Both the position numbers and the translations under genes were made by a program. This document shows positions 21,591 through 24,222 of a stretch of DNA of 64,000 nt, in pieces. This DNA comes from a virus, in IMG/VR virus record IMGVR_UViG_3300034283_002790, positions 96,001 through 160,000 of that record. One strand, 5' to 3'. Position 1 is the stretch's first letter, and the number at the start of each line of letters is the position of its first letter. The notes below the pieces were generated by a model that had not been told where the DNA came from, did not search any database, and saw nothing but the letters and a program-made list of their open reading frames with translations.

Positions 21591-21624
21591 AATTTAACTC
21601 TTTAAAATAAATATCACGATAAAT

Positions 21625-21655
21625 AAAAAACCCCACCTGTTAAAGATGGGGTTTT
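21625..21655 (-). terminator. Intrinsic terminator downstream of the CRISPR array
   Basis: AAAACCCCA-loop-TGGGGTTTTTT on the minus strand; near-identical to 27679-27707. Confidence 0.75.
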
Positions 21656-21666
21656 AATATAATAAA

Positions 21667-22084
21667 TTCAAATACAGATCATATACAACTTTCAGAAAAT
21701 TTAAATGTAGATAGATTTGTTGTGATTACCCTACAAATAAAGACCATACACAACTCAAAACAAACGATTGTGCGACCTTAATTTGTTGTGATTACCCTTC
21801 AAATAAAGATCATACACAACTTTAGGTTGTTATACAGCACTTTCCATCTCGTTGTGATTACCCTTCAAATAAAGATCATACACAACTGTTTTCTATTAAT
21901 CGGCAAACCGTTGAGCGTTGTGATTACCCTTCAAATAAAGATCATACACAACTTGAAAAAGGAAGCGCTAACCCAAATCCCCGTTGTGATTACCCTTCAA
22001 ATAAAGATCATACACAACGCGATAAGTTGTCTTCTACACTCTTCCTCCGTTGTGATTACCCTTCAAATAAAGATCACACACAAC
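21667..22084 (-). CRISPR. CRISPR array: 6 full 36-bp repeats plus one half repeat, 30-bp spacers
   Basis: Repeat GTTGTGATTACCCTTCAAATAAAGATCATACACAAC (+) at 21719 (2 mismatches), 21785, 21851, 21917, 21983 and 22049 (1 mismatch); five 30-bp spacers; half repeat 21667-21689 followed by a 29-bp spacer; strand inferred from tnpB, the terminator and the repeat family. Confidence 0.97.
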
Positions 22085-22120
22085 TGTGTATTTTGGAAAC
22101 ATAATAAATGAAAGGCTCTT

Positions 22121-22183
22121 GTTGTCATTATAAACCCACAAATTGAGTTTTGACCACAATTAAATTGGATGTCACACCACCCA
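22121..22183 (-). ncRNA. Candidate omegaRNA/tracr-like scaffold (two hairpins) between tnpB and the array
   Basis: Hairpin TGGGTG-GTGTGA-CATCCA (22166-22183) and a 40-nt hairpin ending TAATGACAAC (22121-22160), a 9/10 match to the repeat 3' end TAATCACAAC. Confidence 0.4.
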
Positions 22184-22194
22184 GTTTTTGTTTC

Positions 22195-23442
22195 CTAATT
22201 TTCTAAATTTTCAAAGAACATTTTCTTACCTAAGTCCCGAATGTTTAAAGCCGCATTGTAATCACGATCAATTTCGCTTTTGCAGTTTTTACATTCCCAA
22301 ACCCGTTGAGATAAAAGTAGATTTTCATTCACCGTACCGCAATTATTACATTTCTTGCTTGATGGAAAAAATCTATCCACTTTAATTGTGTGTTTCCCGC
22401 TGGAGACACTTTTATAAATAATCATTTCACGTAACATCCCAAGACCAGCGTCCAAAATATTTCGATTTAAGTTTGATTTTTGTTTAACGTTGGTACCAGG
22501 ATTTTCAACGGTACCTTTATTTGATTTCGTCATTTCAACAAGATCCAAATCTTCCATACAAATCAAATCATATTGATCGACCAGTCTTTTGGATACATTG
22601 TGATTATAATTTTTTCTACAGTTTGATATTTTTTCTTCTAAAACATGAACTTTTTTATTCAACTTTTTCCAGTTGTTAGAGTACTTTACACATTTGTCCC
22701 TATTACTTATCAATTTTGACAAATGATTTAAATGTTGGTTCAGGTATTTTGGATTTTTAATAACTTCATTTTCTGATGTAACAATCAAAGATTTTACACC
22801 CGCATCGATACCAACCACAGACTTGACTTCCTTTTTTGAAACATCGTTCTTATATTCTACCAAAATTGACACATAGTACTTTCCATGTTTTTTGGAAATC
22901 GTATATTTTTTTGGAATTCCAATAATTGGTCTATGATATTGGACTTTGATATTTCCAGTAATTTTTGGTAAAGTTAACTTACCATCTTCTTTTATTCCGT
23001 GTTTTTGTATATTAGTATTAATTAATCGTGTTGTAAAACTTTGTTTTTGGTCATTCTTTTTTGTAAAATCCGGTGGTGTGGGACGTTTCATATCGGTCTT
23101 CGGATTGTTTTTAATGACTTGTTTATAGATTTTTGTATTATCAAAAAAATCTGACCAAGCCTTACTTAAATGTTCCATTTCATACATATAAATCTGTGAA
23201 TCGTGATCATTTAAAAAGGGTGCCGATTTTCTATAATTTGTTATATGTTTATTTAATCCAAAATGTGATAAATTTGGTTTTCCACCCAGAGAATATATTT
23301 GTCGATCAAGATCGATGGTTAGGTTTCGAACATACCTTGCCGCTTGTATTGCACCCTCGATTTGTTTAATCTGGGTTTTATTGGGGTATATTCGATACTT
23401 AAACCCCTTATTTAATACTCCAACCTTTTTTTCTCTTTTCAT
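22195..23442 (-). CDS. tnpB: TnpB / Cas12f-like RNA-guided RuvC nuclease, CRISPR-adjacent
   Basis: FKYRIYP HTH_OrfB start; RuvC-I VGIDAG, RuvC-II ICMEDL, CNNC/CKNC zinc finger, RuvC-III DRDYNAALNI; D-E-D triad intact; no tnpA nearby. Confidence 0.92.
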   Translation of the reverse strand: MKREKKVGVLNKGFKYRIYPNKTQIKQIEGAIQAARYVRNLTIDLDRQIYSLGGKPNLSHFGLNKHITNYRKSAPFLNDHDSQIYMYEMEHLSKAWSDFFDNTKIYKQVIKNNPKTDMKRPTPPDFTKKNDQKQSFTTRLINTNIQKHGIKEDGKLTLPKITGNIKVQYHRPIIGIPKKYTISKKHGKYYVSILVEYKNDVSKKEVKSVVGIDAGVKSLIVTSENEVIKNPKYLNQHLNHLSKLISNRDKCVKYSNNWKKLNKKVHVLEEKISNCRKNYNHNVSKRLVDQYDLICMEDLDLVEMTKSNKGTVENPGTNVKQKSNLNRNILDAGLGMLREMIIYKSVSSGKHTIKVDRFFPSSKKCNNCGTVNENLLLSQRVWECKNCKSEIDRDYNAALNIRDLGKKMFFENLEN

Positions 23443-23446
23443 AGTA

Positions 23447-23478
23447 CAAATTTAGAATTAATTTTTTCAATAGTCAAA
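23447..23478 (-). promoter_or_regulatory. Bacteroidota sigma-A promoter of tnpB
   Basis: TTTG-N20-TAAATTTG ending 4 nt before the ATG. Confidence 0.75.
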
Positions 23479-23537: not shown

Positions 23538-24167
23538 CTAGGATTTCCATGTTAAAGAATTTTTTTTGACGTTTCTATTAATGTGAGAACATAGGGGCTG
23601 AAAATTTGTATAATGGTTAAGTTTAAAAACATCTTCCTTTGTGACGGCTGATGACAAAGGTATAATATGATCCAGGTCCCAACCAAAATTCAATTTTCCA
23701 TTATAAAGACCATAATTATCCCAGGTCATCCAAAGTTCAAATTGGGATTCAATATGTGACTTAAACTCACCATGATCACACCCAAGAATTTCAATTGTCT
23801 TGAGTTGTTTCGATGACTTAAATTTGGACAATGATTTTCGAATTTTGGATCTAACTCTTTCCTTCAATTTAAAAATGGGATCAATCAATTTTCTTTGTTT
23901 GATGTAATCTTTGTGTTTTGCCGATAAAACCTTTCGATTATCTTTTCTATATTTTTTTCGTTGATTAGATATTGAATCTTTATTTAATACTTGATATTCT
24001 TTTATTTTTTCAAGTTCTCGAGTTTTATTTTTTGCGTAATATTTTTTTCTTTCTGCTGATCTACACAATTTACATTGTGGGGAAAAGTTATCAGATTGTC
24101 GTTTATTTTTATTAAACTCTGTGAGAACTTTTTCTTCACCACATTTTGTGCAAACCTTTTTTTCCAT
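23538..24167 (-). CDS. HNH-like endonuclease with an N-terminal C4 zinc motif
   Basis: CTKC...QCKLC; WDLDHIIPL...LNHYTNFQPL; TAGTTTTG promoter at 24174-24181. Confidence 0.75.
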   Translation of the reverse strand: MEKKVCTKCGEEKVLTEFNKNKRQSDNFSPQCKLCRSAERKKYYAKNKTRELEKIKEYQVLNKDSISNQRKKYRKDNRKVLSAKHKDYIKQRKLIDPIFKLKERVRSKIRKSLSKFKSSKQLKTIEILGCDHGEFKSHIESQFELWMTWDNYGLYNGKLNFGWDLDHIIPLSSAVTKEDVFKLNHYTNFQPLCSHINRNVKKNSLTWKS

Positions 24168-24222
24168 CTTTTTCAAAACTAAATGAAAATATCTATATTA
24201 TCAAATTTTTTTCAAAAAAACC

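Follow-up and report, generated by a model that had tools for sequence, protein, structure and literature searches.

Nucleases of about the size of TnpB have been found beside arrays of short palindromic repeats that are clustered and regularly interspaced (CRISPR) in several settings. The TranC effectors of Jin et al. (Cell 2025, doi 10.1016/j.cell.2025.09.004), as outlined in PMC13565253, are TnpB-sized and use an omegaRNA split into a part that resembles tracrRNA (trans-activating CRISPR RNA) and a crRNA (CRISPR RNA), a change termed "functional RNA splitting"; one of them, CauTranC9, comes from a phage (bioRxiv 10.64898/2026.03.27.714800). The type V-U* branches V-U6 to V-U45 comprise TnpB-like Cas12 candidates with downstream arrays and no other cas genes, many of them known only from metagenomes, and the survey of these branches left open whether the arrays arose by duplication of the omegaRNA or by insertion next to an array already present (Altae-Tran et al. 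2023, PMC10691335). TnpB genes adjoining arrays have also been seen in landfill phages (PMC12607003). Type VI-B arrays, which serve Cas13b, have 36-nucleotide (nt) repeats with 5' GUUG, 3' CAAC and a U-rich loop, 30-nt spacers and no cas1 or cas2, and the Cas13b crRNA is ordered spacer then repeat (bioRxiv 10.1101/092577). Here we describe a locus in a 64,000-nt stretch of viral DNA (positions 96,001 to 160,000 of IMG/VR record IMGVR_UViG_3300034283_002790; hereafter the window) in which a tnpB gene is followed by an array whose repeats, by their sequence, belong to the type VI-B family. We think it fairly probable that the locus encodes a DNA nuclease of the TranC or type V-U* kind, TnpB-derived, phage-borne and guided by CRISPR, and we extend that estimate to the model as a whole, capture of the VI-B array included.

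The element lies on the minus strand, and its nuclease, linker and array are arranged as follows.

22195 to 23442, minus strand: TnpB-type RNA-guided nuclease of 415 amino acids (aa), with RuvC residues D213/E297/D394, a CxxC...CxxC zinc ribbon and profile matches.
22085 to 22194, minus strand: predicted scaffold (tracrRNA-like, or omegaRNA body), 110 nt between tnpB and the array.
22167 to 22182, minus strand: hairpin H1, GGGUG[GUGUGA]CAUCC, whose loop sequence UGUGA is complementary to UCACA at the 3' end of the repeat, a proposed pseudoknot.
22109 to 22115, minus strand: anti-repeat core CCUUUCA, complementary to UGAAGGG/UGAAAGG in the 3' half of the repeat.
21719 to 22084, minus strand: six full 36-nt repeats (consensus GTTGTGTATGATCTTTATTTGAAGGGTAATCACAAC) with five 30-nt spacers; the first repeat, R1, is at 22049-22084 and the sixth, R6, at 21719-21754.
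21654 to 21718, minus strand: a sixth spacer of 29 nt (21690-21718) and a decayed terminal repeat (21654-21689).

The array has a period of 66 nt, and its decayed seventh repeat overlaps the terminator. Because the decayed copy at the far end marks the trailer, the leader end is the one that adjoins tnpB. A first-pass annotation made from the sequence alone had placed the 110-bp linker where we find it and had counted the six full repeats correctly; its uniform 30-bp spacers did not hold for the last one, and the decayed repeat has to be added.

Gene, linker and array travel together. Relatives were gathered by protein searches and locus retrieval from lake and marine metagenomes and from IMG/VR, at 94, 79, 76, 56, 54, 47-49, 46, 43 and 40% identity to the window TnpB. 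Every relative in this 40-94% range for which downstream DNA is available has the same linker and array on the same strand, with 36-nt repeats and 29-31-nt spacers, and its first guide begins 108-153 nt past the stop codon. Nearly all lineages keep 4-7 near-identical full repeats; a minimal form (L079-L081) has one repeat, one spacer and a partial repeat. One candidate for an array-less relative, L010, was rejected, as its apparent loss is a 100-N scaffold gap. Arrays were found in 0 of 74 phage TnpBs at 30-36% identity and in none of the metagenomic TnpBs examined at 35% identity or less. A maximum-likelihood tree (quick search) groups the 12 array-bearing proteins in a single clade (approximate likelihood-ratio test support of 100) nested among 57 array-less TnpBs. 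The genes around the unit vary between lineages, and the tnpB-linker-array unit is therefore kept as a module. The first-pass annotation had asked whether close homologs keep arrays or are ordinary array-less IS200/605 passengers: all those examined at 40-94% identity keep them. Its suggestion of an array-guided nuclease at a TnpB-to-Cas12 transition stage draws support from this clade-wide linkage and from the conserved complementarity between scaffold and repeat described below.

The protein itself scores as a TnpB, with 275.3 bits against NCBIfam NF040570 (guided_TnpB; cut-off 100) and matches above the respective cut-offs to PF01385 OrfB_IS605 (76.9 bits), PF07282 Cas12f1-like_TNB (73.2 bits) and PF12323 HTH_OrfB_IS605 (28.4 bits). 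Narrower models were matched below their cut-offs: NF038281 IS200_TnpB at 245.8 bits (cut-off 425), the type V-U2 model NF038192 (C2c8) at 131.7 bits (cut-off 350) and the Cas12f2 model NF049972 at 55 bits (cut-off 450). Residues D213, E297, D394, C365, C368, C384 and C387 are invariant among the 12 clade members, and the triad and cysteines line up with the catalytic regions in ISDra2 TnpB and 9J09, which bears out the intact RuvC D-E-D and zinc finger that had been read from the sequence. The closest solved structures by sequence are 9J09 (146.6 bits), ISDra2 TnpB (116.7), LaTranC (52.5) and Cas12f (~43).

The linker carries conserved complementarities. Two of its stretches, the first 40 nt past the stop codon and a block further on, ...ACAAGARCCUUUCA..., are conserved across the clade more than coding DNA; H1 and the anti-repeat are separated by a hairpin whose sequence varies freely apart from a conserved GUUA/AUUA loop. 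Four helices were tested on an alignment of 12 sequences. The H1 stem is 100% paired, with 2 pairs compensated, and so is the helix between the H1 loop UGUGA and the repeat end UCACA, which shows one compensatory change (UGUAA with UUACA in L089); the anti-repeat helix, CCUUUCA:UGAAAGG, is paired in 86% of cells and a helix between the end of the open reading frame (ORF) and the linker in 93%. Over all 22 proposed pairs, 94% of cells are paired, compared with 39-55% when the partner is slid, and four pairs change on both sides, a level reached by 0 of 500 shuffles. In-register anti-repeat pairing covers 8-10 of 12 positions in all 9 lineages, and loop-tail complementarity in the clade and sister omegaRNAs is greater for cognate than for shuffled pairs (p=0.003, with loops and tails read by eye and relatedness uncontrolled). 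No Rfam family scored above threshold in the locus.

The arrangement of these parts can be laid over that of the sister omegaRNAs, which run ...AGGAAUCC, a stem strand, a UUUA loop, the other stem strand and an 8-10-nt tail ending ...GUCAAY, followed by the guide. Within the clade, the anti-repeat stands at the place of the 5' strand of that last stem, and the UGAAAGG of the repeat together with UAAUCACAAC stands at the place of the second strand and the tail. The scaffold seems clearly to descend from an omegaRNA, and the linker would act as a tracrRNA-like scaffold pairing with the repeat. Several lineages show the junction in shortened form. The first unit of L011 and L089 is a 3' half repeat, only the 5' half of the first repeat having decayed, and in L173 and L174 it consists of just the 3' 17 nt of the repeat, tied to the anti-repeat by an 8-nt loop, which is a natural single-guide form. 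Because these first units are fused half repeats, the implied register of the guide is repeat then spacer, as in TnpB and Cas12 and the reverse of a Cas13b crRNA.

The same marine lineage provides a second view of the scaffold. L173 (1975-2290) and L174 (2590-2970) carry another copy upstream of tnpB, with its own TTG...TATATTTG promoter box, a half repeat and an array, so that tnpB is flanked by two scaffold-array units; this duplication was seen in no other lineage examined. Given this stand-alone, promoter-driven copy, we regard the scaffold as a probable RNA gene that starts near ACUGGGUGG and is independent of the ORF end. A closing stem, GGAAAC/GUUUCC, and the pairing of ORF end with linker had been candidates for the core model and were dropped, both being absent from the stand-alone scaffold.

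Two further features bound the unit.

23447 to 23478, minus strand: Bacteroidota-type promoter (TTTG at 23475-23478, a 20-nt spacer and TAAATTTG at 23447-23454).
21617 to 21655, minus strand: intrinsic terminator with a 12-bp stem, a 5-nt loop and a T run.

In TTTG-N20-TAAATTTG, which we take to be the promoter form of Bacteroidota, the -7 box stands exactly 12 nt ahead of the start codon in the window and in L086, L165, L011, L082 and L079, that is, in all loci with called starts, and the motif is also found upstream of tnpB in L087 and L089. This fixed position points to a Bacteroidota host and to a very short or absent 5' leader. The host-type promoter proposed at the outset is thus conserved at the same distance in relatives, though a generic sigma-70 scan found 13 sites compared with 11.9 in shuffles, which is not above chance. 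The predicted terminator is likewise upheld by its strong hairpin and T run at 21627-21655, and an equivalent hairpin follows the array in three relatives (L009, L086 and L165). In DNA run X3, several contigs connect the terminator hairpin (21620-21655) to other flanks, with loose ends at 21620-21653; since these contigs join the hairpin to other DNA, the terminator sequence recurs elsewhere in the community or genome. Two sigma-70-like hexamer pairs (10/12 matches) lie within the scaffold at 22101-22156 on the minus strand, a short way upstream of the first repeat; such pairs do not exceed chance in this AT-rich DNA, but they could mark an internal start of the array. Contigs of three lake metatranscriptomes, from three studies, match the 3' part of the ORF, the linker and R1-S1-R2-S2-R3 without mismatch (S denoting spacers), and their word depth peaks over the linker and the first repeats. 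Spacers 4-6 and the 5' third of the ORF have no RNA contig cover, from which we draw no conclusion.

The repeats fit the published definition of type VI-B in each respect, with 36 nt, 5' GUUG, 3' CAAC, a U-rich middle and 30-nt spacers. When the phage-repeat pattern (TTTGAARGGTANNCACAAC, then 29-31 nt, then GTTG) was searched against prokaryote genomes, one per species, it matched 63 stretches, nearly all in Bacteroidota, where fewer than 2 are expected by chance (an estimate from the size of the collection). The repeats of all 63 are 36 nt long, and their identity to that of the window reaches 30/36. Most of these loci have an ORF of 1100-1200 aa beside the array, which proved to be Cas13b in 7 of the 8 tested (700-876 bits), and none of the examined Bacteroidota array loci matched by the pattern carries this TnpB. 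Within the phage clade, the 3' half of the repeat is almost invariant, whereas about half of the lineages carry AUUG, GGUG or GAUG in place of 5' GUUG; window-like lineages keep GUUG...CAAC. As it is the end closing the Cas13b hairpin that changes while the 3' half stays, the constraint on the repeat appears to come from the TnpB scaffold.

A second nuclease lineage uses the same repeat family. In IMGVR_UViG_3300015615_000196, a 362-kb jumbo phage (L077/L078), a 501-aa guided_TnpB/Cas12f2-like protein (L077 11978-13483) is followed by a linker of ~250 nt and a long VI-B-like array with the repeat GTTGTTGATCTATTGAATTTGAAAGGTAGTCACAAC, which starts at about 13735; L078 1-804 is part of the same locus. 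The only BLASTP match of this protein to the window TnpB is a 54-residue zinc-ribbon stretch. GmrSD-like genes lie on both sides of this nuclease-array. The use of one repeat family by a second, nearly unrelated nuclease speaks for docking onto the format of host arrays. With a scaffold of probable omegaRNA descent, a repeat of a foreign VI-B family and a nearly unrelated nuclease using that same family, the evidence points to capture or mimicry of an array, which the need to borrow host spacer-insertion enzymes may have driven.

The model that we favor builds on what was observed, namely the anatomy of the locus, the clade-wide linkage, a complementarity that is conserved and shows some covariation, the family to which the repeat belongs and the missing cas genes; what we infer is how the RNA would be processed and paired in trans, how it would direct cleavage, by which route spacers would be gained and what the targets would be. 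Host RNA polymerase would start at the Bacteroidota-type promoter and transcribe tnpB, the 110-nt scaffold and the array together, as a single unit, as far as the terminator. The scaffold would be the body of the ancestral omegaRNA, the last stem of which has been split: its 5' strand, CCUUUCA, would remain in the scaffold, and its 3' strand, UGAAGGG, with the tail UAAUCACAAC, would now come from the 3' half of every CRISPR repeat. The first repeat-spacer unit could be read in cis, like an omegaRNA with its guide, and later units would be excised and would pair with the scaffold in trans through the anti-repeat and a loop-tail pseudoknot (UGUGA:UCACA). The resulting complex would cut spacer-matched DNA beside a target-adjacent motif through the intact RuvC site. 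The array was likely captured from, or moulded onto, the host VI-B format so that host Cas1-Cas2 can insert spacers, and the likely use is in conflict with other phages or mobile elements.

Whether units beyond the first are guides at all is where the model meets its best-placed alternative, in which the RNA would act in cis only: the first unit alone would be used, and the others would be spare guides that reach first position by repeat recombination and are not processed to crRNAs. The first units speak for this, since they are often half repeats and in L173 and L174 are fused to the scaffold like a natural single guide, and so does the minimal array of L079-L081; processing is also not seen in the RNA contigs, which show no ends. 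We nevertheless hold it to be unlikely, as nearly all lineages maintain 4-7 near-identical full repeats, the anti-repeat and loop complementarity is equal for inner repeats, and the TranC systems, as outlined in PMC13565253, use a crRNA with a tracrRNA.

The repeat format raises the alternative that the array is an orphan VI-B array that loads host Cas13b, for example against transcripts of rival phages, and that TnpB is separate or serves only to keep the locus. Repeat length, repeat ends and spacer size are all those of the VI-B family (bioRxiv 10.1101/092577), the array is transcribed in the Cas13b sense, and the order of effector then array is that of cas13b loci. Set against this are the facts that array and TnpB clade are never seen one without the other, that the GUUG closing the Cas13b hairpin is altered in about half of the lineages while the scaffold-pairing 3' half is invariant, that half-repeat first units cannot yield a Cas13b crRNA, and that the second TnpB-like lineage shows the same arrangement; we therefore give such a use of host Cas13b a slim chance. 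A combined form seems to us similarly doubtful, in which one transcript would serve two effectors: TnpB would read the 3' half of the repeat with the next spacer and cut DNA, host Cas13b would read the preceding spacer with the full repeat and cut RNA, and host Cas1-Cas2 would refill the array. If this were true, the phage would arm its own nuclease and a host RNase with the same spacers, and an array would be common to type V-like and type VI effectors across the virus-host boundary.

Under the favored model of a TnpB-derived nuclease with exchangeable guides, spacers would have to be gained and lost. The window phage and L009 are 96-98% identical in their flanks over 8 kb and have no common spacer, and L168 and L169 have one inner spacer in common, the others being different. 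Since the latter pair differs around an inner spacer, and the decayed repeat lies at the far end, the patterns fit insertion at the scaffold end together with losses. The record lacks cas1 and cas2, and host Cas1-Cas2 would be the natural source of insertion; in Flavobacterium columnare, Cas1 of a type II-C system adds spacers to a VI-B array in trans (PMC8092290). Such borrowing would explain why the phage keeps a full VI-B repeat and 30-nt spacers though its nuclease seems to need only the 3' half. The locus had first been called self-contained, which holds for a unit of promoter, TnpB, linker, array and terminator with no other cas genes, but not in full, as the repeats have the format of host VI-B arrays and spacer insertion must come from elsewhere.

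These spacer patterns also bear on the notion of an RNA decoy, in which the repeats mimic host VI-B repeats and soak up or mis-assemble Cas13b. The likeness of the repeats and the lack of a cas13b in the 187-kb record searched agree with it; exact-length spacers would be unneeded, and the complete replacement of spacers between phages with flanks 96-98% identical and the strict linkage of the repeats to a nuclease and to a scaffold that pairs with them would stay unexplained, so that we consider a decoy very improbable. That an ordinary IS200/605 TnpB element landed by an unrelated array is hardly credible, for though the protein scores as a TnpB and insertion near pre-existing arrays is a recognised possibility (PMC10691335), it is present in single copy with no TnpA in the record, its linkage is kept clade-wide to 40% identity in varied gene contexts, and its scaffold is complementary to the repeat.

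A number of results weigh against the model of an array-guided, TnpB-derived nuclease. On the RNA side, the structure was derived from the same sequences that were used for counting pairs; co-evolution of anti-repeat and repeat is weak (in-register cognate versus non-cognate pairs, p=0.09); free duplex energies of linker and repeat show no cognate preference (p=0.40); and single-sequence minimum free energy folding of the window scaffold is no better than that of shuffles (z=-0.13). The sense in which the repeat is transcribed would be readable by Cas13b as well, and the RNA evidence consists of assembled contigs, which report presence only, have neither ends nor strand and could reflect carried-over DNA. 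On the side of the targets, 73 spacers compared with the phage itself and all retrieved loci gave self matches only and no protospacer; the window array and three other arrays gave nothing among GenBank phages, or a weak 79% match at E=0.4; 22-mers of spacers 1-4 had no match in IMG/VR; and the window array had two short matches among 401 Bacteroidia genomes, neither counted as a protospacer. The comparison of spacers with IMG/VR (spacers 1-4) and Bacteroidota that the first-pass annotation had proposed has thus yielded no usable protospacer. Finally, the leader-end spacers S1-S2 are identical in runs from 2017, 2018 and 2020, so that spacer gain is not frequent or rapid within the strain.

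The first of the two Bacteroidia matches spans a spacer-repeat junction. The second pairs spacer 6 with 25/26 nt of L245 3012-3037 (G242:C54:20611-20636); it is AT-rich, diverges beyond the match and is only marginal, with E ~0.04 after correction. Its site, in a Bacteroidia genome, is a Fib_succ_major lipoprotein gene that forms part of a glycosyltransferase/O-antigen ligase cluster; if it were true, the target would be a host surface-polysaccharide locus.

The IMG/VR record containing the window is 187 kb long, with ~30% G+C, and is 64% complete by CheckV; by this length at this completeness, the source virus is a jumbo phage. All sequencing runs containing the stretch are lake-water metagenomes. 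The record has one TnpB copy and one array. Neither Cas1, Cas2, Cas13b nor Y1 TnpA was found in the whole of the 187-kb (64% complete) record, which extends to the record what had been noted for the window, where tnpA, cas1 and cas2 are indeed lacking; the Cas13b model NF038190 has no match in it and does find cas13b in two control genomes (G001 and G002). Directly upstream of tnpB, at 23538-24176 on the minus strand, is an endonuclease VII/HNH-like gene (phrog_1035, 79.7 bits), a 34%-identical homolog of which follows the array directly, on its downstream side, in the lineage of L082 and L168 (L082 6754-7239; L168 3776-4261). This nuclease is loosely associated with the module, on either side, and may be a homing endonuclease that moves it.

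If the model is right, the clade offers a concrete case for the question of how transposon nucleases gain arrays, by duplication of their own guide or by docking onto an existing array (PMC10691335). It would also let phages that have neither cas1 nor cas2 maintain an adaptive set of guides, through adaptation that we infer to be borrowed. A 415-aa nuclease with a scaffold of ~100 nt and a defined repeat handle is in addition a natural candidate for a compact editor.

To place the locus among known systems, we begin with its transposon relatives. With ISDra2 TnpB (8H1J, 8EXA) it has in common the order of domains and the catalytic residues, a guide RNA at or after the 3' end of the gene and a guide at the 3' end of that RNA. 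The ISDra2 omegaRNA scaffold contains a pseudoknot. Unlike ISDra2 TnpB, the phage unit has no transposon ends or TnpA and is present in single copy, and it has several exchangeable guides in an array where ISDra2 has one fixed guide derived from its flank.

The best solved relative is Cas12n, or type V-N (9J09, 9UDI; 9J09 is called Cas12n in bioRxiv 10.64898/2026.03.27.714800), with 146.6 bits over residues 72-413 and a common RuvC-domain insert, TKSxKGTVENPGxNVxQKSxLNR, that is missing from ISDra2 TnpB. However, the window TnpB is 125 residues shorter, and array-less TnpBs score higher (152-197 bits) and surround the phage clade in the tree, for which reason we take it to be a lineage separate from Cas12n and probably its own derivation within the TnpB subfamily having the TKSxKGTVENPG...QKSxLNR insert.

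The VI-B arrays of Bacteroidota (Smargon et al., bioRxiv 10.1101/092577; Hoikkala et al., PMC8092290) resemble that of the phage in their 36-nt GUUG...CAAC repeat, 30-nt spacers and lack of adjacent cas1 and cas2. They differ in that the phage record is without cas13b and the neighbor of its array is a RuvC nuclease, in that the implied register of the phage guide is repeat then spacer, and in the loss of 5' GUUG in about half of the phage lineages.

The systems closest in overall plan are those with which we opened. TranC, as far as the published outline describes it, is alike in the TnpB-sized effector, a downstream array of few 32-38-nt repeats, the lack of other cas genes, the split omegaRNA and the existence of phage members; the likeness rests on these published descriptions rather than on numbered clades, and against that outline the phage clade stands apart in its type VI-B repeats and, in one lineage, in a scaffold that is also present as a separate promoter-driven gene upstream of tnpB. 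By sequence, LaTranC (9JFO) matches only the C-terminal 150 residues of the window TnpB (52 bits). Type V-U* is alike, again by description, in its conserved downstream array and lack of Cas1/Cas2/Cas4. A search of the literature found no report linking TnpB-derived array effectors to VI-B-type repeats. Effectors of TnpB size that have an array downstream and an omegaRNA split in two are thus an already published kind, sometimes found in phages, and the VI-B repeat format is the new twist that this locus adds to it.

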